Of a stretch of 64,000 nt of DNA, positions 11,705 through 62,750 are shown piece by piece. Source of the DNA: a virus. Taxonomy: Duplodnaviria > Caudoviricetes. The notes under the pieces were generated by a model. The model searched no databases, was not told where the DNA came from, and saw nothing but the letters and a program-made list of their open reading frames with translations. The stretch is from positions 32,001 through 96,000 of IMG/VR virus record IMGVR_UViG_3300010352_001405; one strand, given 5' to 3'. A program made the position numbers and the translations under genes. How positions within the stretch are numbered: position 1 is the first letter of the stretch; each line of letters begins with the position of its first letter.

Positions 11705-11707
11705 TAG

Positions 11708-12037: not shown

Positions 12038-12294
12038 TTTCCCAATTTTCTTCACCATATGGATCATCGGGTGTAAAAATTCTAATTGGATCTTTTTTTA
12101 TTTTTTGTAACCACATTCTATCATATATCATTTTAAAACCATTATCAAATTCAACTTCTACTGTATACCCCAAATGATACTTTTGAATATTTAAAATATA
12201 ATTCAGAATCAAAATAGCATAAATTAGTAACATCGTCTCCAACTTTAATTTTATTTCCGTTCATATCTAAACAAGAATCTACATTTTTTATCAT
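12018..12294 (-). pseudogene. DPYGEENW-tagged small protein, apparently frameshifted
   Basis: ATG at 12294 after a late-type motif gives MIKNVDSCLDMNGNKIKVGDDV...; a different frame gives LGYTVEVEFDNG...DPYGEENW; span is 3n+1. Confidence 0.55.
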
Positions 12295-12454: not shown

Positions 12455-15400
12455 ATGGTTAAAAATAATTCAGATAAATATCAAAAACTTACACATAAAG
12501 AACATGTCTTATTAAGACCCAATATGTATGTTGGGTCAGTTGTGAATGAAACAAAATCACTTTTTGTCGTAGATGATCCAAAATATTTAAATTCTTTTAA
12601 AATTACTAATAAAACAGTTAGTTATAATGGTGGATTTTTAAAAATATTCGACGAAATACTTGTTAACGCATCAGATCATTCGATAAGAACTGATAAAGTA
12701 AAATATATCAAGGTCGATGTTACAAAAGATTCAATTTCTGTAGAAAATGATGGACCTGGAATACCCATAGAAATGCATAATAAAGAAAAATGTTATATTC
12801 CAGAATTAATTTTTGGGCATCTTTTAACAGGATCCAATTTTGATAAAAATGAAGATAAATATTGGGGTGGGTTGCATGGGTTAGGCGCCAAGTTAACTAA
12901 TATCTTTTCTAAAAAATTCATCATAGAAACGTGCGATGGAAAAAAACATTATACTCAAATTTTTGAGAACAATTTAAATAAGATAAATAAACCAAAAATA
13001 AAATCATCGAAGAAACAATATACAAAAATAACTTATTATCCCGATTTTACACGTTTTGATTTAGTTGGTATAGATGAAGATATTGAATCAATTTTCATAA
13101 AAAGATGTATTGATGTTTCTGTATATTGTAGCAAAGTTAAAGTATATTACAACGGAAACCTTATACCAACAAAAAGCTTCAAATCATATATGGAAATGTT
13201 CGTTAGTGACCAAGAGACATTTTACGAAAAAATAAATGATTTTTGGGAAATTGGTGTTAGTAAATCATTAGACAATTCGTTTGATCAAATATCTATGGTA
13301 AATGCTATTTCTACTTATAATGGCGGAACTCACGTTAATGCCATAACTAATCAGATAACAAAAAGGATACAAGAATCATTATTAAAAAAGAACAAAAAAT
13401 TAAACATTAAACAAAACGATATAAAAAATCGATTATTTGTTTTCGTTAATCTTAAAGTGGCTAATCCAGTATTTGATACGCAATCAAAAGAAAATCTTAT
13501 AAGTAAAATAAATGCTCCTGATGTATCAGATATTTTAATAAAAAAAATAACATCATCATCGATGATAGATGAACTTCTTAAATTTTTAATGATTAAAGAA
13601 GAACATGATACCAAAAAAGAAATAGGTAAACATAAAATAAAAATTAGTAAACTAGAGGACGCACGAAAGGCTGGTACATCTGAAAGCAAATCTTGTTTAA
13701 TTTTTATTTCAGAGGGGGACTCAGCTTCAAGTTCAGTTATGGCTGGTATTTCAGGATCAGACAATCCTGAATATTATGGAGTTTTTCCAATCCGTGGAAA
13801 AATTTTAAACGTAAGAGATGAAGATCTATCAAAAATAAGAAATAATGAAGAAGTAAAAAATATTATAAATATATTAGGATTAGAATATGGAAAACAATAT
13901 ACAGATACATCTAAATTAAGATACGGGAAAATTGTTTTAACTGCCGACGCCGATTGTGATGGGAACCATATCAGAGGACTTATAATAAATCTCTTTGACA
14001 CATATTGGCCCGAATTACTTAGAATGGACTTTATATATGATTTTATAACGCCGATAGTCAAAGCTACGAAAGGAAATAATATCAAATATTATTATAGTTT
14101 GAAAGATTATCAAAAAAATAAAGAAAATCTTTCAGGATATGAAATTAAATGGATAAAAGGTCTTGGGACAATAGAACCGCACGAAATGAAAAATTTTTTC
14201 AAAAACATAAATAAACATCTCATAAGATTTCATGATACACCAAAATCAGATACTAAAAACATGATAGATCTTGTTTTTAATAAAAAAAGATCAGATGATA
14301 GAAAAGAATGGTTAAAGAATTATAAACCAATAGAATACATCGATAAATTTACAACCAATCAAACATACGATAAATTCATTAATAACGAATTAATGGAATG
14401 GAGTATGGAAACATCTAATAGAATGATACCCAATATCATGGATGGCTTAAAACCAGGTCAAAGAAAAGTTATTTATACTATGTATAAAAAGAATATGAAA
14501 ACTGATATTAAGGTTAGTTCTTTATCTGGAGCCGTAATTCAAGAATCAGCTTACCACCATGGTAATGTATCAATCGAGGGGACTATAATTGGAATGGCAC
14601 AAGATTTTGTTGGTTCAAATAATTTGAACTTAATTCTTCCAAAAGGACAATTTGGTTCAAGATTAAAGGGGGGTAAAGATTCTGCTAGTGCCAGATATAT
14701 ATTTACTAAGCTTAATGATATAACTTCAAATATTTTGAAAAAAGAAGATAATGATATTTTAGAATATCAGAATGATGATGGATTTCCAATTGAACCAACT
14801 TACTATGTCCCTGTTATACCTATGATTCTTGTGAACGGAGGGTCTGGTATAGGTTCGGCTTATTCAACTGATATACCAAGTTTTAGTCCACTTGAAATAA
14901 TAACATATTTGCAGAATAAAATTAAAGGAAAAAAGAACATTGAATTAATACCATACTATAAAGAATTTAAGGGGACCATAGAATTAGATATTGAAAATAA
15001 AAGATATATAACAAGAGGTATTCTTAATAGGGTAAATGATATAACTTATGAGATAAAAGAATTACCACTTTGGATGTGGAATGATTCATACTATGAATTT
15101 TTAGATGATTTATCAGAAGATAAAAAAGAACCTAAGACTCAAAAGTTAATAAGAAAAGCTTACATAAGAGATTGGGTAAAGAGTGGTAATGATAAAGACA
15201 TCCATATTAAAATCTATTTCTATAAAGATGTACCTAAAGAGTTCTTTCATAATATTTGGAAGAATTTAAAAATGGAAAGTTATATATCTTTTAATAATAT
15301 GTATTTATGGGACGAGAATAAAAAAATTAAAAAGTATTCAAACCAATACGAAATAATAGATGATTTCTATAAAATAAGATTAGAATATTATACAAAAAGA

Positions 15401-15736
15401 AAAAATCATCAAATAGAAGAACTGAAAAAAGATATAAAAATTGTTCAAAATAGAATGAAATTTTTGAAAAACGTTATCGATGGCAATCTCATCATTTACA
15501 AAAAAACCAGAGATATAGTAGAGAAGGATTTAGATAAATTAGCTTTTGATAAAGTAGATAATTCATATGGATATTTGTTGAATATGTCTATTATGTCTTT
15601 CACTAAAGATAGATTACAAGAATTAAAAGAAGAACTTGATAATACTAAATTGAAATTAAAAGAATTGGTAGAAACGAGCGAAGAAACTATTTGGTTAAAA
15701 GAACTATCAGAGTTAAAATCTAAATTAAAATTTTAA
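12455..15736 (+). CDS. Type IIA DNA topoisomerase, single polypeptide (GHKL ATPase, TOPRIM and breakage-reunion domains)
   Basis: HVLLRPNMYVGS, EILVNASD, GGLHGLGAK, EGDSA, PIRGKILN, DADCDG, KGLG, DGLKPGQRK, YHHG, SARY catalytic Tyr. Confidence 0.95.
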   Translation: MVKNNSDKYQKLTHKEHVLLRPNMYVGSVVNETKSLFVVDDPKYLNSFKITNKTVSYNGGFLKIFDEILVNASDHSIRTDKVKYIKVDVTKDSISVENDGPGIPIEMHNKEKCYIPELIFGHLLTGSNFDKNEDKYWGGLHGLGAKLTNIFSKKFIIETCDGKKHYTQIFENNLNKINKPKIKSSKKQYTKITYYPDFTRFDLVGIDEDIESIFIKRCIDVSVYCSKVKVYYNGNLIPTKSFKSYMEMFVSDQETFYEKINDFWEIGVSKSLDNSFDQISMVNAISTYNGGTHVNAITNQITKRIQESLLKKNKKLNIKQNDIKNRLFVFVNLKVANPVFDTQSKENLISKINAPDVSDILIKKITSSSMIDELLKFLMIKEEHDTKKEIGKHKIKISKLEDARKAGTSESKSCLIFISEGDSASSSVMAGISGSDNPEYYGVFPIRGKILNVRDEDLSKIRNNEEVKNIINILGLEYGKQYTDTSKLRYGKIVLTADADCDGNHIRGLIINLFDTYWPELLRMDFIYDFITPIVKATKGNNIKYYYSLKDYQKNKENLSGYEIKWIKGLGTIEPHEMKNFFKNINKHLIRFHDTPKSDTKNMIDLVFNKKRSDDRKEWLKNYKPIEYIDKFTTNQTYDKFINNELMEWSMETSNRMIPNIMDGLKPGQRKVIYTMYKKNMKTDIKVSSLSGAVIQESAYHHGNVSIEGTIIGMAQDFVGSNNLNLILPKGQFGSRLKGGKDSASARYIFTKLNDITSNILKKEDNDILEYQNDDGFPIEPTYYVPVIPMILVNGGSGIGSAYSTDIPSFSPLEIITYLQNKIKGKKNIELIPYYKEFKGTIELDIENKRYITRGILNRVNDITYEIKELPLWMWNDSYYEFLDDLSEDKKEPKTQKLIRKAYIRDWVKSGNDKDIHIKIYFYKDVPKEFFHNIWKNLKMESYISFNNMYLWDENKKIKKYSNQYEIIDDFYKIRLEYYTKRKNHQIEELKKDIKIVQNRMKFLKNVIDGNLIIYKKTRDIVEKDLDKLAFDKVDNSYGYLLNMSIMSFTKDRLQELKEELDNTKLKLKELVETSEETIWLKELSELKSKLKF

Positions 15737-15853
15737 TATAATATTAAAATTTATTTTTTACCCATTCCCAAGCTTTTAGTAAATAAGGTTGAGCCATAAC
15801 TCCGCCAACCAATCCGATTAATAAACCTATTAAAAACCACATAATTTTAGTTA

Positions 15854-16543
15854 TTATTTTTTATCTTGTTTTTTTAATGGTAATGGAGGAAAAAACTTAA
15901 ATCTTCTATTTAGAAATCTTCTAAATTCATTTTCGACATAATAAGGTGGAACAATTGACAAATCATCTTGATATTGAATTTTTTTAACTATATAAAAACT
16001 AAAATCTATAATATGTTCTTTTCGAACCATATTAATGAGTCCTCTTTCTATTGCGAAAGAATTATAAAACCAATCATCTACTGTCAATCTTTCTATTTCT
16101 CCCTCTGTTAAATCCATTGTTTTATTTATTATATTCAATAAAAAACCATCATATTTTCCATTGTCCATTTTTAAAACTTGAATCATAATTTTATTTAATG
16201 CTCTAGTTGCTCCAAGAATTTGTGAAATTAACCAAATTGGAAAAAAAATCGGAGCAAAAGCAATTGGAACAATTCTCCATAGAAATTTTTGAATACCTTG
16301 TTTTAATTCTCTGGATTTTTTAAATTTCAATGCGTCTTGATGAAGAGATTTTAACATCCCGAATGTGAGTTTTCTTTGACCACTTGTTAAATATTTATAA
16401 AGATTTCCATTCATGGCTATCTCTTTTATTTTAAGATAATCTGGATCTTGTGGATCATCAGGTATATTTGAAAAAATATTAGTAAGATTAACACCAGCGT
16501 CTATATCTTGAAATTCTTCATATATATGTTTTAAATGTTCCAT
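15854..16543 (-). CDS. Hypothetical membrane-associated protein with leader motif
   Basis: 229 aa; MEHLKHIYEEF; one hydrophobic segment. Confidence 0.7.
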   Translation of the reverse strand: MEHLKHIYEEFQDIDAGVNLTNIFSNIPDDPQDPDYLKIKEIAMNGNLYKYLTSGQRKLTFGMLKSLHQDALKFKKSRELKQGIQKFLWRIVPIAFAPIFFPIWLISQILGATRALNKIMIQVLKMDNGKYDGFLLNIINKTMDLTEGEIERLTVDDWFYNSFAIERGLINMVRKEHIIDFSFYIVKKIQYQDDLSIVPPYYVENEFRRFLNRRFKFFPPLPLKKQDKK

Positions 16544-16595
16544 TCAAAAACTTTTATTGATTTGTTTTATATATTAAAATAAATTAATTAATTAT

Positions 16596-16964
16596 TTGAA
16601 ACAGATAAATTATTTCAAATTTCTTGAACAATATCCAGAATTTATTGGTTTTGATGAATCTATTCCAATTAAATTAGCTTTACTTTCCGAAGTAAAGAAA
16701 CAATATTGGTTTAAAAAAGAAGGAGAAATAGCTAGATTATTGCCTTTGAATTTTCACAATAAACAAACTACATTTTTTTGTAATCACTTACGTATAAAAT
16801 ATAGAAAAGCTGATGTTGCAATCATATGGACAGACGATGAAAATCACATAAAATATTTTTCTTATAACATTAAACCCAATATTTATATAATGATGGAAAA
16901 AGAAGAAATGATTAATTTAAAAAGAGAAATATTAATAAAGGAAATGTTATTGAATAAATCATGA
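16596..16964 (+). CDS. Hypothetical protein
   Basis: 122-aa ORF with ATGA overlap into the gp46-like gene. Confidence 0.6.
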   Translation: MKQINYFKFLEQYPEFIGFDESIPIKLALLSEVKKQYWFKKEGEIARLLPLNFHNKQTTFFCNHLRIKYRKADVAIIWTDDENHIKYFSYNIKPNIYIMMEKEEMINLKREILIKEMLLNKS

Positions 16965-36052: not shown

Positions 36053-37858
36053 TTAAATATCTCGGTAAGTATCATTTACTATGTATTCCCAATGCCATGG
36101 TTCAGCTTGTCTGGCACCTTTTCTAGCCCAACTTGGATTAACAATACCAAAACTTGGAGCATTTTTATCCATCCATTTATATACTTCAGAATCGAATGAA
36201 ATTCCACCACCCCTGGTAGAATCACCGATATCAACAGCTATACCCCAACCATGTAATGATCTACCAGGAGTTGCAGCAAGACTTCCTTTTCTTCTTTTAA
36301 CATCGACTTGAGCTTCATATGTTCTGTAAGAGTCTGTAACGTATATACTTTTGCTGAATTTTTTCATATATTCTATATTTAATTTTATATAATTTAAAGC
36401 AAAATGTTTTTCTAGCTTTGCTGTGTTTTTCAATTCTCCACTTGAATTCCCAACTTGTATTTTTGACATATATTTATCTGGTACTTCTCCATTTAATATT
36501 ATTTGGCCGTTTACGTTCTTTGTCTTTTGACCAGTTTTTGTTGTACCTGTTGCATAATTTTGTAAAGCTCCTCCTCCAGAAGTTGTAGATTTTTCAACAT
36601 ATTGTGATTGATCATCTGTAGTAAAAACCACACTTGGATCGTAATTTTCAGCGATATCTTCGGAAGAATCATCATAAACGTCATCATTATTTTCAAAAGC
36701 CATTCCGGATATAATATCATCGGGATCTGATTGATCTTCATATGTTTCATCACCCGAATTATAATTTAGTGCCCCATTACTTTTTTGTTCTTTCTTTTCT
36801 ATTTCTTTAGCTTCTTCTTCAGTAACATATTTATAAGTTTTTTCCGGTGTTGAAACTGGAACCATGACTTGTACATAATTTTCAATGTTTTTAAAATCGT
36901 AATCAGTGAATGAAGTCTCAGTGCCTTTTTTTTCGTATAGATTTATATCTTCATTGCTGTCTATTCCGAATGGTACTTCAGATAAACCTTCAACTATATT
37001 TCCGGATGAATCTTCGGAAGAGATAGAAGTCTTTTTAATTATTGACGATGGTATAGATTCTTTTAATTCGTTATTGCTTTTTTCAAATTGTTCTATAATT
37101 TTTTCTTTTAAAACTGGATCATTTGTTATATTATTATTTATATTGACCCCGTCGTGCATTTGACTAGAAGATGTTGGTGTTCTTTTAAGTTTTTCTACTT
37201 TTCTATTATCAACAATATTCACGTAATCAGATACAAAATCTTTTCTAAGATTTTCATATTCTGCGATTGATAGTTCTAATTCTGTTTTAAGTACATTTGC
37301 TCCTTTACTATCTAACAATGAAGTCGGTTTCTTTAAAATACTCATGAATTTATCCATCCATTCAAAATATCTTGTCCCTAAAACGGCTTGTTGCGTCGAA
37401 TTTTTTGTACCTATATTTAATTTTTGATTAGCATCCTTTAATTCTAAATTAATGTTTTCATTATCTATTGTTATTTTATTATATTTATAGTCCATAGTTA
37501 GATTTGTATCATCTGCGAAAATTTGTGTTCTATGATCAATCAATATGGCGAAAAAATTAACATATTCTTCGTCTGACATATCTTTTATTTTATTAAATAC
37601 ATTTATATTATAATGATCAGAATACATGTAATAAGGTTCATATAATATGTCATTTGGAAAAAAAACAGAAACTATTTTACCGATGGCAGGTACTTCAAAA
37701 GATCTAGCACTCAAGGACTTAATTGGGGTAGCCCAAGGAATATCTTCAACAGGTATATCATCAAATATACTTTGAACTCTAATTTTAACTCTACCGAGTC
37801 TATCTGGATCAACATTGTCTTCTACTAAACCGACCCATAATTTATCTAAGTCTTTCAC
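36053..37858 (-). CDS. Baseplate spike/hub (gp5-like OB domain) fused to an M15/VanY-type peptidoglycan peptidase
   Basis: GLVEDNVDPDRLGRVKIRV...IPWA; C-terminal SYRTYEAQ, PGRSLHGWGIAVD, EPWHWEY. Confidence 0.85.
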   Translation of the reverse strand: MKDLDKLWVGLVEDNVDPDRLGRVKIRVQSIFDDIPVEDIPWATPIKSLSARSFEVPAIGKIVSVFFPNDILYEPYYMYSDHYNINVFNKIKDMSDEEYVNFFAILIDHRTQIFADDTNLTMDYKYNKITIDNENINLELKDANQKLNIGTKNSTQQAVLGTRYFEWMDKFMSILKKPTSLLDSKGANVLKTELELSIAEYENLRKDFVSDYVNIVDNRKVEKLKRTPTSSSQMHDGVNINNNITNDPVLKEKIIEQFEKSNNELKESIPSSIIKKTSISSEDSSGNIVEGLSEVPFGIDSNEDINLYEKKGTETSFTDYDFKNIENYVQVMVPVSTPEKTYKYVTEEEAKEIEKKEQKSNGALNYNSGDETYEDQSDPDDIISGMAFENNDDVYDDSSEDIAENYDPSVVFTTDDQSQYVEKSTTSGGGALQNYATGTTKTGQKTKNVNGQIILNGEVPDKYMSKIQVGNSSGELKNTAKLEKHFALNYIKLNIEYMKKFSKSIYVTDSYRTYEAQVDVKRRKGSLAATPGRSLHGWGIAVDIGDSTRGGGISFDSEVYKWMDKNAPSFGIVNPSWARKGARQAEPWHWEYIVNDTYRDI

Positions 37859-46051: not shown

Positions 46052-47674
46052 ATGTTAATAACGAAAGAAATTGAAGTAAAAATAACAAGACAAAATATCA
46101 ATCATTATAGAAAAATCGGAAAAAATGTTAATTTGAAAGATAATATTATGGTTAAACCAGAAGAGTTGCCAAAAAATTCTCATAAGATTTTAAAAGTTGT
46201 TTGTGATGTATGTGGTAAGGAATTGGATATGAAATGTCAAACTTATAATAAAAGATTATCTTGTTTAAATTATATTACGTGTAAAAAATGCAGCATTGAA
46301 AAAATTAAAAAATTAAATCTTATAAAATATGGAGTTGATAATTTTTTAATCACAGATGAATTTAAAAATAAATCAAATAAAACAAAAATAGAAAAATATA
46401 ACGATATAAATTATAACAACCCTGAAGAAAATAAAAAGACATGTTTATCGAAATATGGAAAAGAATATCCACTACAAGTTGAAGAATTTAAAGAGAAATT
46501 AAAAAAAACCAATTTTATAAAATATGGTAAAGAGTATTATTATAATATTGAAAAATTAAAAAAAACTTGTTTGGAAAGATACGGTGATACAAGCGCTATG
46601 AAAAATGAAAATATTAAAAAAAAGGCTATTAATATTAAAATGAAAAAAAGAATACCGTTATTATCGAAATATGGTATCGTCAATATAAATGAAAATAATG
46701 AATATGTTTGTAATAAAAATCACGTTTTTAATATGAATAAAGGAACCATATCTAGCAGATTGAATTACAAAACAATTTTGTGCCCGATTTGTAATCCATT
46801 GTACTCTAGTAATAGTAGCGGGTATCAAATTCAATTATCGAATTTCATTAAAGAAAATTATAATGACGAAATTTTAATAAATAACAAAAATATAATAGAT
46901 AAAGAAATAGACATTTATTTGCCAAAATTGAAATTGGGATTTGAATTCAATGGTCTTTTCTGGCATAATGAAATTGGAAAAGAAAAAAATTATCATTTAA
47001 ACAAAACAAATTTAGCGGAACAAAAAGGAATTAAACTCATCCAAATATACGAGGACGATTGGTTATATAAACAAAATATCATTAAATCCAGAATACTGAA
47101 TCTTTTAAATAAAACTCCAAATAAAATTTATGCTAGAAAATGTACAATAGAAGAAATCGAAAACAATAAATTAATTAGAGATTTTCTACAAAATAATCAT
47201 TTACAAGGATACATTGGTTCCAAAATAAAAATTGGACTTTTTTATAATAACGAACTCATTTCTTTAATGACTTTCGGTAATTTTAGAAAAGCTATGGGTC
47301 AAAAATCACTAGAACATTCATATGAAATGTTAAGATTTTGTAATAAACTAAATACTAATATTATAGGTGGAGCAAGTCGTTTATTTAAATATTTTGTAAA
47401 AAAATATAAACCAATTGAAGTAATTAGCTATGCTGATCGTAGTTGGTCTTCGGGTGATCTATACAAGAAATTAGAATTTATTCTAGTTAACAAAACCCAA
47501 CCTAATTATTATTATATTATTGACGGTATTAGAAAACATAGATTTGGTTTTAGAAAAGACATCCTTGTGAAAAACGGTGCAGATCCAAATAAAACAGAAC
47601 ACGAAATAATGTTGGATCGAAAAATATATAGAATATATGATAGTGGAAATTTGAAATTTATTTTTAAACAATGA
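46052..47674 (+). CDS. Putative homing endonuclease, paralog of 6383..8098
   Basis: CDVCG, KT...KYG repeats, EIDIYLPKLKLGFEFNGLFWH, YADRSWS. Confidence 0.75.
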   Translation: MLITKEIEVKITRQNINHYRKIGKNVNLKDNIMVKPEELPKNSHKILKVVCDVCGKELDMKCQTYNKRLSCLNYITCKKCSIEKIKKLNLIKYGVDNFLITDEFKNKSNKTKIEKYNDINYNNPEENKKTCLSKYGKEYPLQVEEFKEKLKKTNFIKYGKEYYYNIEKLKKTCLERYGDTSAMKNENIKKKAINIKMKKRIPLLSKYGIVNINENNEYVCNKNHVFNMNKGTISSRLNYKTILCPICNPLYSSNSSGYQIQLSNFIKENYNDEILINNKNIIDKEIDIYLPKLKLGFEFNGLFWHNEIGKEKNYHLNKTNLAEQKGIKLIQIYEDDWLYKQNIIKSRILNLLNKTPNKIYARKCTIEEIENNKLIRDFLQNNHLQGYIGSKIKIGLFYNNELISLMTFGNFRKAMGQKSLEHSYEMLRFCNKLNTNIIGGASRLFKYFVKKYKPIEVISYADRSWSSGDLYKKLEFILVNKTQPNYYYIIDGIRKHRFGFRKDILVKNGADPNKTEHEIMLDRKIYRIYDSGNLKFIFKQ

Positions 47675-53329: not shown

Positions 53330-56300
53330 TTATTCACATTTACTCCAATGACAATCTAAACAAGAAATACAACTTTCTTTATATACAAGATTGGTTGAAC
53401 CGCAATTTGGACAAATATTTTTGCCATTTCCCTTATCGTCTTTTATATATTTCTTCAACATTCTGATTATACCTTTTTTCCAAGTTCCCATAGTATCACC
53501 GTCCAAATTTAGAGATTCTATGATACCTACAACAGAAGGAAGATGAATATGATGTCTGAGTAAAGCACTAGTCATTTTACCAATATTCCAATATTCTCTA
53601 GCGAAAGATCTATTTAAACCTGTCATTATAACTTCGTATCCTTCTTTATCAATATAAATAAAGTCATATCTAGATACTAAAATTCCTTCTTTGTTTTTTA
53701 TTTTTTCCTTTCTTATTTGGCCTTTTTCTATCCACGCTGGAATGACAAATGATTCTGCTAGACCAGTGAAAATTTCATAGGGAGAATCTTTTAATATACC
53801 AATAAACCCAATCCATTTTTCACCCTTATTAGTGAATCTAATAACATCACATTCTAAAATTCTTGGTCTTTTTGGTGCATTATTTTCTTCAAATTCAGTT
53901 TTCTTTTCTTCTTTTTTAACAATAACGCCTTGTCTGGATCCATCTCTATATATTGTTATTCCTTTACATCCACTTTTCCATCCAGTTTCATATACTTTTG
54001 AAACTAATTCCTCAGTAATATTATGTGGTAAATTCACCGTAACTGAAATAGAATGATCTATCCATTTTTGAATTTGACCTTGCATATTCACTTTTTCTAC
54101 CCAATCAATATCATTTGATGTTGAATTGAAATAAGGTGATTGTTTAATTATTTCATTTAATTTTTCATCATTCATTTTAGAAACTTCATCAACATCAAAT
54201 CCTTTAATTTTTAACCATTCAACAAATTTGTGATGAAAAACCACATATTCTTCCCAATCAATACCTTCAGCATCGGTAAAATCTATTTTAACTTTATTAT
54301 CATTTTGATTTATTTTTCTACGTCTTTTATAAGCAATTAAATAAGCTGGTTCTATTCCCGATGTTGTTTGAGTTAATGTGCTTACAGATCCTGTTGGTGC
54401 TAAAGTCAATAATGATATATTTCTTCTACCATAATTTTTCAACATTTCAGATAATTCTTTATCTGCATCTTTTAATCTATTAATAAAAGGATTATTAATT
54501 TCTCTATTATAATCATATATTGGAAAAGTTCCTCTTTCTTTAGCAAGGTTACAAGACGATTTATAAGCATTTATAGACATAAATTTATGAATTTCTACAG
54601 AAATTTCTGTAGCTGATTTAGTGCCATAATGTTTATTTAAAGCAGCTAACATATCTCCCTCTCCAGTAGTACCAAATCCAGTTCTCCTACCTTGAATAGT
54701 TTTTTCTTTTATATCTAACCACAATTGTTTTTCCCTACCTTTAATATAATCTTCCTCGGGATCAGAATTAATTTTTTCTATTATTTTATATATTTTTTCG
54801 ATTTCTAAATCTATCATATCATCCATTAATCTTTGACCTATCCAAACATGTTTCTTAAATAAATCAAAATCAAAATAAGCTTTATCAGTAAATGGATTAA
54901 TAACATAAGAATATAAATTGAGAGCCAATAACCTACAGGAATCCTTGCTACAAAGGGGAATTTCTCCGCAATTTTCAGTTAAAACGTTGATTTTAAAGTA
55001 TTTATCCGTGATAAAATAAGTGTGAAAGTCGTCCACAGTTCCGTTATATACGTTTTCTATTCCATCTAATTCTACAGATAATACTTTATGATTAAAAAAT
55101 ACAGATTCTTCTTTAAGTTCATTATAAGAACTAAAACCATATTTAGTTTTTAATCTAAATGGAATTTCGTTTTCTTTGCATTCTTTTTCCCATTCTTTCA
55201 ATAATGGGATTCTTTTTAAGTTAAATTCTAAATCATTGTATATTTTTAATTGTTTTTGTTTAGTTTCATTTCCTTTTGCGTTATATGTATCATTTATTGT
55301 GTTTTTTCTTTTATTTCTTATATTATTATTTGTATTAATATAATTTAGAGAACAACCATGTGAACAGAAACTTATTTCTCTTTTTATATAATTAACCCAA
55401 AAATATTTACCGCAATTTTCACATGTTTTTTCTATCATCACACAATTTTCTCTAATTTCGGCATTATATCCATTATTTAAAGCTTTTTTATATGTTTCAA
55501 CTAATCTTGGATCATTGTTGATAAAATCAATTTCTAATTCAATAGCTACTAATTTGGCTAAAGATGTTACACTTTCAAAATTTCTAAATTTTGTAAAATA
55601 TTGTGGTAAATTATTTTTTCTAGCATAATTTATCCAATCTTTTTTGGAAAATCGTTTACCTAATTGTTTAGTTAAAATTATAGCATGATTTTTAATTTCT
55701 TCATCTAATATTCCACTATAATTCGGATTATTCTCTCCTGGATGAGATGCGAAATCCAATTTCCATTTATTTGACATACTATGATAAGAATTCAATTTTC
55801 CTAATTTATCAATTGTATGTAATTTATCATGTTTTTCTTTTGACATGATAACTAAATTTTCAGGATTATTATTCATGCCATTATAATCTTTATGATGAAC
55901 AACCAAATTTTCATTTAAATCAACATTTTTATTATAATATTGAGCGATCAATCTATGTTCTCCGATCGATTCACTACCATTCCTAAGTGTATAATAAGTA
56001 TTAGATTTTTTATATTTATTTTCATATTTAGTCATAATCTTCAAACTATCACCATATTTTAAATTTTTAGCCTCTACTCTATCATTATCTCTTAATACAA
56101 ATACATGATTTCCAGTAACTCTGTATGAAATACCTCCTTCGATTGTAACTTTATAAATTTGTTGATCATATCCAGTTATGCGAGGATTTCTCATTTTTCT
56201 AATAACTAATTTTCCTTCATTATCCATTGAGTAAACTGGAACATCTTTACCTTCTTCCGCTAATTGTTTTATACTGACAGCATTGCGTCCATCAGCTACA

Positions 56301-57235
56301 GCTATTAAAGTATCTCCAACAACACATGGATTTGTTGAAATAGTCTTAAAACCTTGATCAGCATAACAATCCGGAACTGATTCACCTATAACTGTGTCCC
56401 AAAATAAAACACCTGGCTCAGCCGATTTCCAAGCGTTGTGTATTATTTTTTTCCATAATTCACTGGGATTAATTTCTTTAGATACTCTTGGATTTTCAGA
56501 ATAAATAGGATATTTTTGAATATAATTTTTCTTATTTTCAATAGCCTTCATAAATTCATCATCTATTCTGACAGATATATTTGATCCAGTTATTTTACCA
56601 TCAATCATTTTAGCGTCAATAAAATCTTCACTATCAGGATGATTTATACTAATAGATAACATTAAAGCTCCTCTCCTACCATTTTGAGCCACTTCTTTAG
56701 TAGAATTAGAATATCTTTCCATAAAAGAAACTATACCAGTTGACGTTATAGCGGAATTTTTAACTGGAGATCCTTTAGGTCTTATATGAGATAAATCATG
56801 ACCTACTCCACCCCTTCTCTTCATTAATTGTATCTGTTGTTCGTCAGTTAAACAAATAGCACCATAACTATCAGATTCATTTCCAACAACATAACAATTA
56901 GATAAACTAACTATTTGTTTATTATTTCCTATTCCTGACATAGGACTTCCTTGTGGTATTATGTATTTAAATTTATCTAATGTTTCGAATATCTCTTTTT
57001 CTGTTAATGGATTTTCATATTTATTTTCAATTCTAGCAAATTCTGATGCTAATCTATTGTGCATATCTGTTGGATCTTTCTCATAATATATAATATTATC
57101 ATCTATAATATCTTTCAAACAATATTTATTAATCCAAACATCTGTTGATAATTTATCACCATCAAAATATTTTATAGTAGATTCATAAACTTCATTTTTA
57201 GAATATAATTTCTTAGTAAATTGATCGCTTCCCAT
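53330..57235 (-). CDS. nrdJ: Class II (adenosylcobalamin-dependent) ribonucleotide reductase with intein
   Basis: PQGSPM, SLSNCYV, RRGGVG, GRRGALM, TNP|...|CGEIPL, APTGS, GITIYRDGSR, C-terminal CPNCG...C..C..SKC. Confidence 0.92.
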   Translation of the reverse strand: MGSDQFTKKLYSKNEVYESTIKYFDGDKLSTDVWINKYCLKDIIDDNIIYYEKDPTDMHNRLASEFARIENKYENPLTEKEIFETLDKFKYIIPQGSPMSGIGNNKQIVSLSNCYVVGNESDSYGAICLTDEQQIQLMKRRGGVGHDLSHIRPKGSPVKNSAITSTGIVSFMERYSNSTKEVAQNGRRGALMLSISINHPDSEDFIDAKMIDGKITGSNISVRIDDEFMKAIENKKNYIQKYPIYSENPRVSKEINPSELWKKIIHNAWKSAEPGVLFWDTVIGESVPDCYADQGFKTISTNPCVVGDTLIAVADGRNAVSIKQLAEEGKDVPVYSMDNEGKLVIRKMRNPRITGYDQQIYKVTIEGGISYRVTGNHVFVLRDNDRVEAKNLKYGDSLKIMTKYENKYKKSNTYYTLRNGSESIGEHRLIAQYYNKNVDLNENLVVHHKDYNGMNNNPENLVIMSKEKHDKLHTIDKLGKLNSYHSMSNKWKLDFASHPGENNPNYSGILDEEIKNHAIILTKQLGKRFSKKDWINYARKNNLPQYFTKFRNFESVTSLAKLVAIELEIDFINNDPRLVETYKKALNNGYNAEIRENCVMIEKTCENCGKYFWVNYIKREISFCSHGCSLNYINTNNNIRNKRKNTINDTYNAKGNETKQKQLKIYNDLEFNLKRIPLLKEWEKECKENEIPFRLKTKYGFSSYNELKEESVFFNHKVLSVELDGIENVYNGTVDDFHTYFITDKYFKINVLTENCGEIPLCSKDSCRLLALNLYSYVINPFTDKAYFDFDLFKKHVWIGQRLMDDMIDLEIEKIYKIIEKINSDPEEDYIKGREKQLWLDIKEKTIQGRRTGFGTTGEGDMLAALNKHYGTKSATEISVEIHKFMSINAYKSSCNLAKERGTFPIYDYNREINNPFINRLKDADKELSEMLKNYGRRNISLLTLAPTGSVSTLTQTTSGIEPAYLIAYKRRRKINQNDNKVKIDFTDAEGIDWEEYVVFHHKFVEWLKIKGFDVDEVSKMNDEKLNEIIKQSPYFNSTSNDIDWVEKVNMQGQIQKWIDHSISVTVNLPHNITEELVSKVYETGWKSGCKGITIYRDGSRQGVIVKKEEKKTEFEENNAPKRPRILECDVIRFTNKGEKWIGFIGILKDSPYEIFTGLAESFVIPAWIEKGQIRKEKIKNKEGILVSRYDFIYIDKEGYEVIMTGLNRSFAREYWNIGKMTSALLRHHIHLPSVVGIIESLNLDGDTMGTWKKGIIRMLKKYIKDDKGNGKNICPNCGSTNLVYKESCISCLDCHWSKCE
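54971..56326 (-). mobile_element. Contiguous intein (452 aa) with HNH endonuclease in the RNR active-site NP|CGE
   Basis: Starts CVVGDT; VTGNH block B; VVHHKDYNGMNNNPENL HNH; ends VYNGTV..FHTYF...TEN, then C+1. Confidence 0.9.
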
Positions 57236-57287: not shown

Positions 57288-58394
57288 TTATTTAAAATTC
57301 ATGTCATTAATATACTTATTTAATTTATTTATAACATCATCTTTATAATTAATTCTTAATAATTTTAATGAATTTTTTTCACAAAATTCATTTTTTATAA
57401 TATCATGTTTTTTTATAATATCGAATTGTTTTTCACCACCCCATCTATCAACTGATTCAAAGTGTTGTATACCATCATATTCTATGCAAATATTATAATC
57501 CGATAAATAAAAGTCAAATGGTAATTTTTTAGTGTCCTTACAATCATCAAATTTTTTTTGTCTAATAAAATTAATATTTTTATTTCTTAAATATTCAACT
57601 ATTTTTTTCTCCCCGCTACTTTCATTACAAAAAATACATCCATGACCATCTAAATGATTATTTAAAGTCTGAAAAAATTCACCATGCTTATTACATATAA
57701 CTCTTATTTTATTAGATGTTCTATCAAAATTTTCAGTATCATATTCGTATTTATTATCATGCAAATTATTTAATTTTTCAATAATATCGAAATAATTTTT
57801 TTTACTATTCGGAGAACATTTATAACATCCCTTACCTTGTAAATGATTAACTGGTGTCTGCTCGAAAATACCATGAACTGGACATACTATTTTTACTTTA
57901 GTATGCATACTAATATATTCAACCAAATCATAATTATATAAATCATTATGAACCATTTTAAATTTATTAATTATAACTTCTTTATCATTCCTCTTCTTAT
58001 CAAAAAAACATTTCTTACAACCATGCCTAATATGATTATGTGGAGTTTGCTCGAAAACACCATGAATTGGACATATTATTTTTATCTTAGTGTGCATATT
58101 AATATATTCAACTAAAGAATAATCATAATAATTATCATGAATATTATTAAATCTTTTTATAAAATCATCAATTGACATATTTTTATTAGCACATTTAGGA
58201 CACCCACTTTTTAAATGAATATGATTAGCAGGTTGTTGTTCAAAAATTCCATGAACTGGACATATTATCTTTACCTTAGTCTTATTGTTAATATAATTTA
58301 CTAAAGAATAATCATATCTATCTTTATGAATTAAAATAGATTTATTTATGAAATTTTCATTTTTATCCATATATTTATTTAAAATCCATGTCAT
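57288..58394 (-). CDS. Putative homing endonuclease with DUF723-like Zn repeats and a C-terminal PD-(D/E)XK/Vsr-like domain
   Basis: Four YDYSLV.Y...K.KIICP.HG.FEQ-type repeats; LPFDFYL...IEYDGIQHF. Confidence 0.8.
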   Translation of the reverse strand: MTWILNKYMDKNENFINKSILIHKDRYDYSLVNYINNKTKVKIICPVHGIFEQQPANHIHLKSGCPKCANKNMSIDDFIKRFNNIHDNYYDYSLVEYINMHTKIKIICPIHGVFEQTPHNHIRHGCKKCFFDKKRNDKEVIINKFKMVHNDLYNYDLVEYISMHTKVKIVCPVHGIFEQTPVNHLQGKGCYKCSPNSKKNYFDIIEKLNNLHDNKYEYDTENFDRTSNKIRVICNKHGEFFQTLNNHLDGHGCIFCNESSGEKKIVEYLRNKNINFIRQKKFDDCKDTKKLPFDFYLSDYNICIEYDGIQHFESVDRWGGEKQFDIIKKHDIIKNEFCEKNSLKLLRINYKDDVINKLNKYINDMNFK

Positions 58395-59094
58395 CTAAAA
58401 TATTTAAATACCCCTTATCTTTTAATTCTCTAAGTATAGACGTGGCATATTTTTTATCTAATAGTTTAAACATATTAAAAATATTGTCGGTGAAATAATA
58501 GCTGAGTTCAACAAATATTTCAGACTTGGAATATTGTTTATCCATATTTATCAATAACATTTTGTAATAATTATTGAATATGGCTTTATTTGGTTTTCTT
58601 CTATTGACGCTAAAATCTAAATCTGTATTATTTTTTAATAAATTATATATATCTTCAGATAATTTTCTTCTGCTAGCGATTTCATCACCTCTTCTACTTT
58701 CTTCATCGAAAATACTTCCTTTTTCTATTGGAATATCACCCGAATCATAAGCATCTAATTCATTTATTCCATAATTGATATAATAAGAATTATCTTCTAA
58801 TTCTACTTTGTTTAATTTTCCATTAAAAATTGTGTCTCTTTTTAAACTATGTTTTCCTTCTAACTTATGATTGTTTGTATTATATTTAAAATAAACATCC
58901 AAATCACTTTCTGATTCATCATTATTGACAGTATTATCTATTGTAATATCTGTATCTTCTATAATATCTGTATCTTCTATAATATCTTTGGCAAAATCGT
59001 CATTTAATTCTTCTTGTATTAATAAATCTTCTTCTAATATTTCAATTTTTATTTCATCTTCTTCATTTATATTATCAGATTCTATTTCAATCAT
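58375..59094 (-). CDS. Acidic hypothetical protein
   Basis: 239 aa, D/E-rich N-terminus. Confidence 0.7.
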   Translation of the reverse strand: MIEIESDNINEEDEIKIEILEEDLLIQEELNDDFAKDIIEDTDIIEDTDITIDNTVNNDESESDLDVYFKYNTNNHKLEGKHSLKRDTIFNGKLNKVELEDNSYYINYGINELDAYDSGDIPIEKGSIFDEESRRGDEIASRRKLSEDIYNLLKNNTDLDFSVNRRKPNKAIFNNYYKMLLINMDKQYSKSEIFVELSYYFTDNIFNMFKLLDKKYATSILRELKDKGYLNILDDMDFK

Positions 59095-59240
59095 ATTTAA
59101 AATATTATTTTTTACATCGCAAGATATATCTATTGTGGATATATATGCTAATCCGCATTATAGGTTTAAATAATTTTTTGTAATTTATAGGAAGGTCATA
59201 ATCTTTTTTATATATAAATAATAAAATACAAAAATTTATT

Positions 59241-59765
59241 ATGTCATCAAAAGATAAAAAAATAGAAACTAATATAATAACAACAGAAAAAGTCAATCAA
59301 ATAATGGAAAAAGAGAAACACGCTCTTCCATTAAAATTACACGAAAGACTTTGGTTTAGAGGTAAAGATAATTTTGGTATAAGAAAGCAGGGTATTAAAT
59401 TCGCATCAACTCAAGAAGAAATAGAAGAATATATTAAATGTAAATTATCAGTTTATTATTTTGCTGAAAAATATTGTAAAATTAAATTAGAAGACGGTTC
59501 TGTTGGTCAAATGAAACTCAGAGATTATCAAAAAGATATTATTAAACTATATACCGAAAATCGATTCAGTATATTAATGGCTAGCCGGCAAGTAGGTAAA
59601 TGTATTGATTTTAATACCAGAATATTATGCAAGGACGAACTAACGGAAAATACATTTTATATTTCTATTGGAAGACTTTATTATGATATATTATCAGAAA
59701 AACGTAAATTAAACATCTACGAAAAAATTAAACTTTTTCTATATAAAATTTTAGAAAAAATTTAA
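59241..59765 (+). CDS. terL: Terminase large subunit (T4 gp17-like) N-extein (120 aa) plus IntN (54 aa, from 59601)
   Basis: EEYIKC...YFAEKYCKI, LRDYQ (adenine-binding), Walker A ASRQVGK followed by CIDFNTRI..., then stop. Confidence 0.88.
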   Translation: MSSKDKKIETNIITTEKVNQIMEKEKHALPLKLHERLWFRGKDNFGIRKQGIKFASTQEEIEEYIKCKLSVYYFAEKYCKIKLEDGSVGQMKLRDYQKDIIKLYTENRFSILMASRQVGKCIDFNTRILCKDELTENTFYISIGRLYYDILSEKRKLNIYEKIKLFLYKILEKI

Positions 59766-59842
59766 ATACATTTACATTTATGTCATAAAGCCGTTTAAAC
59801 TTTTTCATATAATTTGTATATAAATAATAAAAAATACGAATT

Positions 59843-60805
59843 ATGGAAAATTTAATTACATGTAAAGTTTGTGGCAAACAATCGACGAGAATCTATGGAG
59901 CTCATTTAAAAAAACACGGTTTAACGTCTGAAGAATATTTAAAATTGTATCCTGGCTCTCCTCTTTACACTGAATCAGATAATAAACAAACCACGAAAAA
60001 TTCGGGAAAACATATGAAACAAGAAAAATATAGAAAGATGTTTTCTGAAAAAATCAGAGGCGAAAATAATCCAAATAGCAAAGCAAAAACCACAGAAGAA
60101 GAAAGAAAAAGTAGAAGTCCTTTCTCAAAAAATTTTATAAAATATAAAAATGAAAATGAAGTTTTGAATTTTTCGATGAAAGTTCAAAAAGAAATTACAC
60201 CAGAAAAAAGACCAAATAGAATAGAATATTGGTTAAATAAAGGATATTCTTATGTAGAAGCTGAAAAACAATTAACAAATAGACAAAAAACATTTTCATT
60301 GAAAAAATGTATAGAAAAATACGGAGAAGAAAAAGGTAGAGAAATATTCAGTGATAGACAAAAAAAATGGCAAAAAAGCTTAAATGAAAATGGTAATTTA
60401 AAACATGGATTTTCAAGATCTTCTCAAATCTTATTTTACGATATTTTAGAAAAATATGATTTGAAAGATCATAGACATATATTTTTTGCTACTAAAAATA
60501 AAGAATTCAATTTACCAAAAAAAGAAGGCGGAATATGGATTTATGATTATACAGATATTAAAAATAAAAAAATGATAGAATATAATGGAGATGAATATCA
60601 CGCAAATCCAAAATATTTTGAAAAAAATGATATATCACATCCGTTCAGAAAACAATATACAGCTGAACAAATATGGGAAAAAGATAAAAGGAAATTAAAT
60701 GTAGCTGAGGAAAATGGATATTCTATGCATGTAGTATGGGATTCTGAATATCGCAGTCATCCAGATAAAATTCTTCAAGAATGTCTTGATTTTCTAAATG
60801 TTTAG
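59843..60805 (+). CDS. Free-standing Vsr-like/EDxHD-type homing endonuclease after TerL-IntN
   Basis: CKVC...HLKKH, YWLNKGY, CIEKYGEEKG, YDY...MIEYNGDEYH, GYSMHVVWDSEY. Confidence 0.82.
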   Translation: MENLITCKVCGKQSTRIYGAHLKKHGLTSEEYLKLYPGSPLYTESDNKQTTKNSGKHMKQEKYRKMFSEKIRGENNPNSKAKTTEEERKSRSPFSKNFIKYKNENEVLNFSMKVQKEITPEKRPNRIEYWLNKGYSYVEAEKQLTNRQKTFSLKKCIEKYGEEKGREIFSDRQKKWQKSLNENGNLKHGFSRSSQILFYDILEKYDLKDHRHIFFATKNKEFNLPKKEGGIWIYDYTDIKNKKMIEYNGDEYHANPKYFEKNDISHPFRKQYTAEQIWEKDKRKLNVAEENGYSMHVVWDSEYRSHPDKILQECLDFLNV

Positions 60806-60853
60806 ATATTGTAAAACGATAGAATTTATTAGATCACAGTGACAATACCAAAC

Positions 60854-61204
60854 TCAACGCGGTATAGAAATTTTTAAGTAGCCACAGAATCCACTTTCGG
60901 AACGATAATGATCAAATCCCTTTTTTTCATAATAATATTTAATCATATCGATTAGATGTACATTATGTCCGCCTCGAGTATTAAAATCATCGGCATATAA
61001 TGTAACACTATCTGATGATTCAAATTTTTTATTTATTTTTCTTATCAATTTCGGTAATCTCTCCTTAGCTTCTTTTAATAATTTTTCTTCTCTCATTTTA
61101 GATTCAGATTCTTTTCTATTCTTTAATTCATCAAGATCGATATCATTATATTGTCTTTTTTTAACGAAATTCAGCCATTCGTTCATGCTTTTTAAATTTT
61201 CCAT
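60854..61204 (-). CDS. Hypothetical protein with leader-like N-terminus
   Basis: MENLKSMNEW; 116 aa. Confidence 0.6.
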   Translation of the reverse strand: MENLKSMNEWLNFVKKRQYNDIDLDELKNRKESESKMREEKLLKEAKERLPKLIRKINKKFESSDSVTLYADDFNTRGGHNVHLIDMIKYYYEKKGFDHYRSESGFCGYLKISIPR

Positions 61205-61255
61205 GTTTTCTTTTTTTTTTTAATATATACAATAAAAAAAAAGAAAATACAGATT

Positions 61256-61633
61256 ATGAAACACGTCAAACTATATGAAGAATATGGGTTAGTTAATAAA
61301 ATTAAAAGAAAATTATTCCCAGAAGAAATTAATGATGTTATCGATGAAATTGAAAATGATCCAAAAATTTCTAAATTGATTTATGGTCCTACTAAAGAAG
61401 ATAAATACGGAATATCTGAAGTGTGTATTGGTTATAAAATCGGAAACGATAAAGCAATAACTCTATCTGGATTTTCTAGTAATTGTCACATTAAACTATG
61501 GAAATTACCTATAGGATCTGATGGAAAAATTTTAGGGATATATTATATAGATGAAGATACAAATAGAAGGATTGGAAATTCTTTACGTGAATTAGTTAGA
61601 AAATTTAAAAGTGGAACAAGATATCAAAATTAA
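61256..61633 (+). CDS. Hypothetical protein with leader motif
   Basis: MKHVKLYEEY; TTTTAATATATA upstream. Confidence 0.65.
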   Translation: MKHVKLYEEYGLVNKIKRKLFPEEINDVIDEIENDPKISKLIYGPTKEDKYGISEVCIGYKIGNDKAITLSGFSSNCHIKLWKLPIGSDGKILGIYYIDEDTNRRIGNSLRELVRKFKSGTRYQN

Positions 61634-61649
61634 ATAAAAAAATTTTCAT

Positions 61650-61689
61650 CGTAAAAAAAACCTACCCGATGAGTAGGTTTTTTTTACGA
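61650..61689. terminator. Bidirectional terminator; second hairpin at about 61711-61728
   Basis: cgtaaaaaaaacctac-loop-gtaggttttttttacg between convergent genes. Confidence 0.75.
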
Positions 61690-61736
61690 TCAAGACAAGA
61701 GTTCCAGAAAAACCCTCTTCCGAGGGGTGAAAAAAT

Positions 61737-62750
61737 TTATTTATCATCATCAAAATCGAAAAAATCATCGATTGATTCGTCTTCGATGACATCGTTTGAT
61801 GGAAGTTTAGTACTAGCCTTTTTAATTGAATCTTCAGCGTAATTAAATGGTTTGTTACCATTAAGTAACTGGATGATTTTATCAACATTACTTCTTTTTT
61901 CATCAGACCATCCTTCCATAGATGGAGCGTGATCTTCCAAATTAACATTAGCTGGTCGAGATGTAACAACTTCTTTAATTTTATTTTGCCATTTTTTATC
62001 TACAATAGAAAATTTACCGTTTTCTTCAACAACAGGAGGTGTAATAAATTTATTAGTTTTATCATTCCAAATTTTAATTGGAGAATTTGTTAAGAATTGA
62101 CTGGTATCATAATTTGGCATTTCAACTGTTCCTCTACCGTCGGGTGATGGAGTTTTTACCAATTTTATAATCAATCTAAAATCTTTTCCATTCACGAAAT
62201 CGAAAATGTTACATTTTTCTCCAACATCTCCATTAATCTCAGCATTAATTTTCTGTTTAATCTTTGGACCATAAGGATAAACTAAAATTTTACCGACCAA
62301 TTCAGGATGTTGTTCATCTTCAATAATCATCACATAAGAATAAAATTTAGTACTTCTTTTTATTCTCTTTGAATTTTCAACATCTGCTTGATTATTAGAT
62401 TTGTAAAGTTTCCAAAAAGTTGCACATAAAGGACATGGTGTTTGTTGTGAAATATTCTTTTCACAATCATAATATCCAGCTAATTCAGGATAATCTTTAA
62501 AATCTGCATAATGTACATGTTTTTGAATAGCTGCTGGGCCTGTTCCCGAACCATCACGGTTAACATTTCTAATAAATCTAATAGTTGATCTGTAACCAAC
62601 GCCCTTTGGATCTGCTGCGTCTTCTAATTTTGGACGATATATACCGTCTTGGTTTTTGCTTTCTTTATTTAAAAAAGCCAATTCTTCATTTTGAACTTCA
62701 TCATTCGATTCAAATAAGAAATTTTCATCTTTGTCTTTGTATTCTGCCAT
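61737..62750 (-). CDS. Single-stranded DNA-binding protein (T4 gp32-like)
   Basis: IRF, H...C..CPLC Zn site, GKILVYPYG.KI..KI, GKDF, NYDTSQF, acidic tail DDFFDFDDDK. Confidence 0.88.
   Translation of the reverse strand: MAEYKDKDENFLFESNDEVQNEELAFLNKESKNQDGIYRPKLEDAADPKGVGYRSTIRFIRNVNRDGSGTGPAAIQKHVHYADFKDYPELAGYYDCEKNISQQTPCPLCATFWKLYKSNNQADVENSKRIKRSTKFYSYVMIIEDEQHPELVGKILVYPYGPKIKQKINAEINGDVGEKCNIFDFVNGKDFRLIIKLVKTPSPDGRGTVEMPNYDTSQFLTNSPIKIWNDKTNKFITPPVVEENGKFSIVDKKWQNKIKEVVTSRPANVNLEDHAPSMEGWSDEKRSNVDKIIQLLNGNKPFNYAEDSIKKASTKLPSNDVIEDESIDDFFDFDDDK

Follow-up and report, generated by a model that had tools for sequence, protein, structure and literature searches.

How does a phage produce the large subunit of its terminase, TerL, if only the beginning of the gene is present at the locus? 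This question is raised by the stretch of DNA analyzed here (the window; 64,000 nucleotides), which corresponds to positions 32,001-96,000 of the linear 163,324-bp IMG/VR virus contig IMGVR_UViG_3300010352_001405 (hereafter G000). At positions 59241-59765, the window contains what is very probably a working N-terminal half (N-half) of TerL, broken within the Walker A motif (GK/T, where the slash marks the split site) and followed by the N-terminal fragment of an intein (IntN). Its partner, a C-terminal intein fragment (IntC) fused to the remainder of TerL (the C-half), is in this reading encoded elsewhere in the genome, most likely by the gene for protein P0362 on a second contig. Since terL is essential, the C-half should reside elsewhere and the protein should be made by trans-splicing, as the initial annotation had proposed by analogy with cyanobacterial DnaE, and the sequence comparisons below support that proposal. 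The GC content of G000 is 25.6% and its CheckV completeness is ~23%, which corresponds to a huge-phage genome of roughly 700 kb; the TerLs of its relatives are located on contigs of 590-736 kb.

The N-half of TerL and its intein fragment

The gene consists of the following segments, given in amino acids (aa) and window positions:

59241-59765, plus strand: open reading frame (ORF) of the terL N-half, 174 aa, composed of a 120-aa N-extein and a 54-aa IntN
59241-59600, plus strand: TerL N-extein, residues 1-120, with the Walker A end SRQVGK, identified with gp17 (phmmer) and phrog_5989
59601-59693, plus strand: IntN core, residues 121-151, Cys1 and block A (CIDFNTRIL...ISIGRLYYDIL) of an atypically split class 1 intein
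59694-59765, plus strand: IntN tail, residues 152-174, SEKRKLNIYEKIKLFLYKILEKI, and the stop codon; a conserved basic amphipathic helix

Residues 41-121 of the N-half align with residues 114-192 of phage T4 gp17 (PDB 2o0h, phmmer E-value 6.6e-13), and the aligned region ends exactly at the Walker A lysine, where SRQVGK/C in the N-half is found in the place of SRQLGK/T in gp17. In a PHROG profile search, the protein matched the terminase large subunit family phrog_5989 (E-value 2.3e-19), and its match to phrog_36964, an intein-bearing terminase family, extended to residue 157, inside the intein part. These matches identify the 174-aa gene as a TerL N-extein joined to an N-intein fragment that begins with a cysteine. 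A gp17-like N-region and a Walker A motif of the form SRQxGK[T/S], as in the T4-type terminases, were recovered, and the Cys nucleophile of a class 1 intein is located directly after the N-extein (Cys121, following the Walker A lysine). The N-extein is 68-75% identical to the N-termini of intein-free TerLs of 770-778 aa, and the IntN core aligns with the N-terminus of a contiguous intein in the TerL protein P0022. No Walker B motif, coupling motif or RNase H-like nuclease domain of TerL was identified in the N-half gene, in the window or in the whole contig.

Absence of the C-half from the contig

A TerL C-half was found neither in the window nor in the rest of the 163,324-bp contig, whether with the Terminase_6N/6C hidden Markov models (HMMs), with two terminase profiles from PHROGs, or with tblastn searches in which 13 TerL homologs (intein-free, intein-containing and short proteins, up to 75% identical in the N-part) served as queries. 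These searches returned only the N-half, plus the inteins of other genes. The earlier statement that no C-half follows the N-half up to position 64000 can thus be extended to all 163 kb. The genes downstream of the N-half, including the place where the C-half would be expected, are:

59843-60805, plus strand: free-standing homing-endonuclease-like gene, 320 aa (phrog_22677, E-value 6.6e-23)
60798-60842, plus strand: mini-ORF of 14 codons, MFRYCKTIEFIRSQ, a chance ORF outside the system
60854-62750, no single strand: context in the expected place of the C-half, with a 116-aa ORF (minus), a 125-aa ORF (plus) and gp32
61737-62750, minus strand: gp32 single-stranded DNA-binding protein (PF08804, E-value 8e-13)

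This order, with an endonuclease gene followed by small unrelated ORFs and gp32, agrees with what had been read from the sequence initially. Fractured genes of the type described by Dassa consist of three consecutive ORFs on the same strand, of which the first two are present for terL and the third is missing. When examined for a Vsr or PD-(D/E)xK nuclease fold, the endonuclease-like protein had a weak, sub-threshold match to PF18741 (REase_MTES_1575, E-value 0.009) and no match in the PDB with a profile built from five sequences. It is a paralog of the endonucleases encoded within the other fractured genes of the contig, with 36-38% identity to the endonuclease ORFs of the ABC and DnaB genes, and is 61-84% identical to the endonuclease ORFs that adjoin the TerL N-half in relatives. 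The gene is missing in the closest relative, L010, and is hence dispensable. The mini-ORF that overlaps the end of the endonuclease gene had been likened to an IntC start, but it is unlike the true IntC start of the relatives' TerLs (MLKNFLREIIYFLIELIEKIEY...) and was rejected as an IntC remnant; the window contains 536 ATG-started frames of at least 14 aa. Scans for promoters and terminators around the N-half gave no more matches than were obtained in shuffled sequence.

A candidate C-half on a second contig

G000 is syntenic with the related phages G001, L010 and LR756501 from the replication cluster through the TerL N-half and gp32 to genome position 100,461, and the synteny ends exactly where the relatives carry a DUF7487 gene and the TerL C-half. 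The C-half homologs that are 69-80% identical to the C-half of G001 include P0362, a protein of 756 aa that was found in JGI, ENA and Logan data on contigs of up to 243 kb. P0362 and the N-half of G000 share four sequencing runs (SRR5007244, ERR7337952, ERR7338891 and SRR33541872). The gene is located on the 243,112-bp IMG/VR contig IMGVR_UViG_3300025858_000010 (G006), which contains a C-half and an ATPase-only paralog of TerL, and on which no N-half was found:

G006 174,415-176,685, plus strand: P0362 C-half gene, IntC and TerL C-terminal part

P0362 matches PF03237 (E-value 4e-9) and aligns with residues 110-738 of the intein-free TerL P0001. Its IntC of 147 aa contains block B (CADVH) and block F (MFDLS) and ends with NDILSLN/T, and the C-extein begins with TISAAIVILQ, which corresponds to TVSAAIVMLW right after SRQSGK in P0001. 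Based on this match, splicing would restore SRQVGK-T and give a TerL of 729 aa, in which the joined exteins read SRQVGK-TISAAIV, as compared to SRQSGK-TVSAAIV in the intein-free protein. Another C-half, P0242, which is the closest to that of G001 by identity, was discarded as a partner because its samples do not contain this phage.

When compared to the complete genome LR756501, the ORFs of G000 map to 165-235, 267-276, 614-686 and 712-733 kb, and the ORFs of G006 map to 0-163, 235-263, 538-613 and 690-706 kb. Their coverage of this reference is thus complementary with zero overlap, both at ~63% amino acid identity, and no single-copy orthologs common to the two contigs were found. At its right end, G000 carries the ortholog of reference gene 235,015 and, beyond it, a 66-nt tandem-repeat gene. 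On the left, G006 starts within a repeat array of this type, and the ortholog of reference gene 235,373 comes next. The two ends abut at one position of the reference, within a single 66-nt repeat array, and the terminal 491 nt of G000 align without gaps with the initial 491 nt of G006 at 92% identity, while the self-identity of the repeat is about 72%. The GC content is 25.6% in G000 and 26.1% in G006, as compared to 29.7-32.2% in the relatives, and the tetranucleotide correlation between the two contigs is 0.956, with values of 0.97-0.98 between halves of the same contig and 0.58-0.79 for the other relatives. From the complementarity, the abutting ends, the composition and the co-occurrence we infer that G006 continues G000. 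The search for an IntC fused to the C-terminal part of TerL, which the initial annotation had called for, has in this way provided a candidate on an abutting contig, although its intein ends in SLN/T and not in the anticipated HN/.

As judged from this layout, the C-half (P0362) is most likely located ~245 kb downstream of the N-half on the same strand; if G000 and G006 are parts of a single genome, no orientation of the two contigs would bring the halves closer than 138 kb. The 10 kb upstream of the P0362 C-half are 100% identical in four assemblies from different samples, and the upstream junction of the C-half is therefore robust. Members of a dispersed repeat-gene family are located at both rearrangement breakpoints relative to LR756501 (G000 100,536-101,285 and G006 170,058-171,503), which suggests that recombination between dispersed repeats may have separated the two terL halves. 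Further 66-nt tandem-repeat genes, with copies that are 85-89% identical, are present at 161,735-163,324, 36,473-37,160 and 12,873-16,862 in G000 and at 1-700 in G006; the family ends both contigs and causes assembly breaks.

Alternative explanations

An assembly chimera at ~60.8 kb that removed the C-half, which had been named at the outset as an observation that could overturn the proposal, would be in line with the strand switch after the endonuclease gene and with the repeat-rich genome. The 174-aa protein and the gene order downstream of it (endonuclease, 116-aa reverse ORF, gp32) recur, however, in at least seven independent assemblies from six samples, and the junction was seen in a 146-kb contig of ENA ERZ795026, in JGI 3300009694 and in at least four Logan runs, produced with different assemblers. 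The gene order downstream of the junction is also syntenic with the three related phages for a further 8-9 kb. The junction at 60.8 kb is not a misassembly, and a chimera can be considered extremely improbable. Scarcely more credible is a scenario, the other one named at the outset, in which the N-half is a decaying relic and the DNA is packaged with the help of a separate intact terL, or of the 390-aa paralog together with another nuclease. It could draw on the presence of this ATPase-only paralog (389-394 aa, PF03237) in both G006 and LR756501 and on the ~40% of the genome that is unsampled. Against it, the N-half ORF is intact and 100% identical in at least 24 contigs, and 404 database proteins of 95-305 aa match it with E-values of at most 0.001, the best 120 of which are similar to it in length (145-189 aa) and, with few exceptions, cover at least 90% of the query. 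The Walker A residues and Cys121 are invariant among 48 aligned N-halves. The pairwise ratios of nonsynonymous to synonymous substitutions (dN/dS) between the N-half and six relatives are well below 1, with ranges of 0.04-0.30 in the extein and 0.07-0.58 in the IntN segments; given the short length of the segments and the near-saturation of synonymous sites, these values are rough. The paralog has no nuclease domain, and no intact terL was identified in G000, in the likely sister contig G006 or in the complete genome LR756501, which contains just an N-half, a C-half and the ATPase-only paralog. The N-half is not a relic.

More weight must be given to the explanation that the C-half is encoded elsewhere in the genome but that G006 belongs to a different, closely related phage, in which case the C-half would be located either >71.6 kb downstream of the N-half or >91.2 kb upstream of it. 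Several observations speak against P0362 as the partner. The C-half is on a separate contig and is linked to G000 through complementarity, composition, co-occurrence and abutting repeat ends; the overlap of these ends is 92% over 491 nt and not exact, and a repeat array would interrupt the assembly of any related phage at this point. The samples also contain related phages, in some cases one of the G001 type. Furthermore, the penultimate intein residue in this lineage is leucine and not the usual histidine (P0362 ends with LN/T); inteins without a penultimate histidine are known to splice. On the other hand, this explanation is opposed by the lack of common single-copy orthologs in two contigs that both map to one reference, by a tetranucleotide correlation that is near the within-contig values and far over those of other relatives, by a GC content that sets both apart from the relatives, and by identical proteins that occur together in four runs. 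We consider it unlikely that G006 comes from a different phage, and retain a working N-half with P0362 as its most likely partner.

Arrangements of terL in related phages

The relatives of G000 contain terL in the following arrangements:

L020 and L021: contiguous intein-free terL
L007 (590-kb scaffold) and L016: N-half, endonuclease gene and an 801-aa ORF for IntC and the TerL C-terminal part, the start of which overlaps the endonuclease stop
L004: halves separated by two reverse-strand genes (2.3 kb)
G004: halves on opposite strands, 4 kb apart
G001, G003 and G005: halves on the same strand, the C-half 12.6-13 kb downstream of the N-half and past gp32
LR756501 (735,411 bp): N-half at 624.0-624.4 kb and C-half at 609.3-611.1 kb, likewise on one strand and separated by gp32
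G002 (118-kb contig): N-half alone

The full fractured arrangement of three ORFs was identified in L007, L008 and L016, and also in the DnaB and ABC genes of the window. In the relatives, the N-half and the C-half are separated by 1.5, 2.3, 4 (opposite strand) or 13 kb. The N-halves of G001, G003 and G005 are 70-75% identical to that of G000, and the local synteny of G001 is like that of G000. The clade thus represents a graded natural series, from intein-free genes, contiguous inteins and adjacent fractured genes to halves that are 2-13 kb apart and, probably, ~245 kb apart in the phage studied here. The series illustrates how homing-endonuclease traffic and recombination can separate the parts of an essential gene once a split intein has made linkage needless. 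The 735-kb genome was published as complete and manually curated, and inteins or a split terminase were not mentioned (Al-Shayeb et al., 2020).

The DUF7487 gene is located directly upstream of the C-half ORF in G001 (and by inference in L010) as well as on G006. It is classified as a homing endonuclease in PHROGs (phrog_3339, E-value 1.5e-116), and its stop overlaps the start of IntC by 8 nt. DUF7487 is a multi-copy family, with members at 172,968-174,422 in G006, at 57,840-59,291 in G001 and at 46052-47674 in the window, and the copy upstream of the unlinked C-half occupies the place of the other endonuclease family in classical fractured genes. The TerL paralog is located at 68,188-69,357 (plus strand) in G006 and at 699,908-701,023 (minus strand) in LR756501. 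It represents the N-terminal/ATPase part of the protein, is 43-47% identical to TerL residues 16-408 (PF03237, E-value 1.6e-6), and contains neither a nuclease domain nor an intein.

Anatomy of the split intein

In total, G000 contains four P-loop genes that are broken at GK/C...N/S or T by related inteins. The lengths of their IntN fragments are:

ABC ATPase: 34 aa
DnaB: 38 aa
ClpB-like AAA+ protein, outside the window: 36 aa
TerL: 54 aa

All four IntNs contain block A alone, which identifies the inteins as atypically split. The split after block A is the one found in inteins of the GOS-TerL/AceL-TerL type, and the remaining blocks are present in IntC (ADVH for block B, MFDLS for block F and NDILSLN for block G). 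Conservation of the partner residues was scored on the relatives and the candidate P0362. Among the 46 C-halves, including P0362, the block B histidine, the block F aspartate, the terminal asparagine and Thr+1 (H84, D128, N147 and T148) are invariant, while the penultimate intein residue is histidine in 24, leucine in 21 and methionine in one.

The TerL IntN is 17-20 residues longer than the other three of G000, and this difference is the tail, which those three lack; the extra tail noted in the initial annotation is therefore a genuine feature. Six residues of the tail (R155, L157, E161, K164, L167 and Y168) are conserved in all or in at least 90% of the 48 N-halves. The IntC of TerL is likewise extended, by ~30 residues at its N-terminus relative to the other IntCs of the contig, and the hydrophobic and acidic positions of this head (MLKNFLREIIYFLIELIEKIEY) are conserved. 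The mean charge is +4.3 for the tail, +2.1 for the head and -5.4 for the IntC body. Charge complementarity between head and tail was considered and found to be unsupported, as both are positively charged and the IntC body alone is acidic. In a MAFFT alignment the head was matched to the tail, a hint that the two segments may resemble each other in sequence.

Both segments are retained, with a few residues between them (...LYDWLYVL-QKNT-LIKIIENS...), in P0022 and P0120, two TerLs of 907-909 aa with contiguous inteins. In an AlphaFold2 model of P0022 (mean predicted local distance difference test score, pLDDT, of 69; predicted template modeling score of 0.38), the equivalent of the IntN core is a beta-hairpin followed by a helix. 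The tail forms a helix at residues 156-170 (pLDDT 81-85), which is followed by a 3-residue turn, a head helix at residues 174-193 (pLDDT 70-77) and a beta-rich HINT body. The model supports a helix-turn-helix at the split site with the tail as one of its arms, and in the split form this element would become an intermolecular helical pair. Given the conservation of the tail and the predicted helix-turn-helix, the earlier suggestion that the tail may help the partners to pair is plausible. Tail and head are, however, also present in the adjacent fractured forms and in the forms with contiguous inteins, and are for this reason older than the unlinking; on these comparisons, the tail is not an adaptation to it. 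To judge from their sequences, the inteins of P0022 and P0120 look like fractured genes that were re-fused through loss of the endonuclease gene, rather than like ancestors of the split.

In the mechanism that we propose, the 174-aa product would be translated separately from within the DNA-replication gene cluster. Its partner would be a 756-aa protein that consists of the 147-aa IntC ending in SLN, Thr+1 and the 609-aa ATPase/nuclease body of TerL, from a gene elsewhere in the ~700-kb genome, most likely that of P0362 next to tail genes. The two polypeptides would dock so that the beta-strands of IntN complete the HINT fold of IntC, with the tail helix and the head helix probably pairing in an antiparallel manner. 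Splicing would then follow the route of an acyl shift at Cys1, transesterification to Thr+1 and asparagine cyclization, and give a 729-aa TerL with the restored P-loop SRQVGK-T. The N-half is located in the replication module (with ribonucleotide reductase, DnaB, UvsX-like and gp32 genes) and the C-half beside tail and baseplate genes. A functional rather than accidental unlinking is conceivable but rather doubtful; trans-splicing would in that case work as a post-translational timer or AND-gate that controls when huge phages package their DNA. Under such a model, active terminase would form only when the two expression programs overlap, and the conserved two-helix zipper at the split site would strengthen trans-splicing.

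Comparison with known split inteins

Naturally unlinked trans-spliced genes are textbook rarities, known from cyanobacterial DnaE and from PolB of Nanoarchaeum. In cyanobacterial DnaE (Ssp/Npu), an essential enzyme is assembled by trans-splicing from the products of two unlinked genes that are hundreds of kb distant from each other, and the TerL described here would by analogy also be an essential enzyme rebuilt in this manner from two unlinked genes. The DnaE inteins are split at the canonical endonuclease insertion site into an IntN of ~100-120 aa and an IntC of ~36 aa, in a cellular genome and with no associated endonuclease genes, whereas the TerL intein is split near its N-terminus, in a phage genome and with homing-endonuclease genes flanking both halves.

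Fractured genes that are accompanied by free-standing endonuclease genes of the GIY-YIG or "Vsr-like" type have been described previously, and one of them encodes a gp17-like terminase, "fractured at an unusual point", whose C-part has 122 residues (Dassa et al., 2009; PMC2677866). This terminase intein and a homolog were later named GOS-TerL and AceL-TerL; their IntN/IntC lengths are 37/115 aa and 25/104 aa, respectively, with Cys at +1 (PMC11766414). The intein studied here resembles them in that it interrupts a gp17-like terminase in metagenomic phage DNA, has a short IntN with block A/N1 and a long IntC with the remaining splicing blocks, and is followed after the N-half by a free-standing endonuclease gene, possibly of the "Vsr-like" kind. 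It differs in its lengths of 54/147 aa, in having Thr and not Cys at +1 (a Cys1/Thr+1 pair, located here inside the Walker A motif, GK/T), in the penultimate leucine of the lineage and in the additional conserved helices that flank the split site. At the published fractured-terminase locus the three ORFs are adjacent, whereas the C-half is unlinked here. Inteins in P-loops (DnaB, MCM, RFC and terminases) are well documented and mostly contiguous (Novikova et al., 2015; PMC4760082). The DnaB, ABC ATPase and ClpB-like genes of G000 are interrupted at the same class of site, and here one atypically split family is found in four P-loop genes of one phage.

Fractured TerLs with atypically split inteins are thus known, while the unlinking and the helical extension are new, with the halves 13 kb apart in LR756501 and probably ~245 kb apart here. 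Further differences are the Cys1/Thr+1 allele in the P-loop with its optional penultimate histidine and the second, unrelated homing-endonuclease gene beside the C-half. No description of an unlinked trans-spliced phage gene was found in the open-access papers searched. For automated pipelines, the split means that TerL, which serves as the standard phage marker, will be missed or mis-sized in huge phages of this kind. With more than 400 members, the family also represents a pool of atypically split inteins of possible interest for protein engineers, with a short IntN, Cys1/Thr+1, an optional penultimate histidine and a built-in helical extension.

Other inteins and endonuclease genes

Two genes upstream of the TerL N-half, at 57288-58394 (minus strand) of the window, is a gene for a 368-aa protein in which DUF723/treble-clef zinc-ribbon modules are repeated and the C-terminal part is nuclease-like. 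It matches the HNH endonuclease family phrog_559 (E-value 4.6e-89) and is another free-standing homing-endonuclease-like gene. The large subunit of ribonucleotide reductase (1301 aa; 53330-57235, minus strand) contains a contiguous intein with an HNH-type insert, which is kept in the relatives (PF14890 and PF13392 annotations). Outside the window, at 153,072-159,196 (minus strand) of G000, the ClpB-like AAA+ gene contains two inteins. In its first Walker A motif there is a contiguous LAGLIDADG-type intein, in which AQPL... follows GVGK, apparently with alanine at position 1, and in its second there is the atypically split intein with an endonuclease ORF (GVGK/C ... SHN/T). Finally, in L012, a phage of the G001 type, a 244-aa ORF at 11,554-12,288 is located 3' of the endonuclease gene. 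Its C-terminus (...EECLDFLNA) nearly repeats that of the endonuclease (...QECLDFLNV), which suggests a partial duplication at the 3' end of the endonuclease gene.

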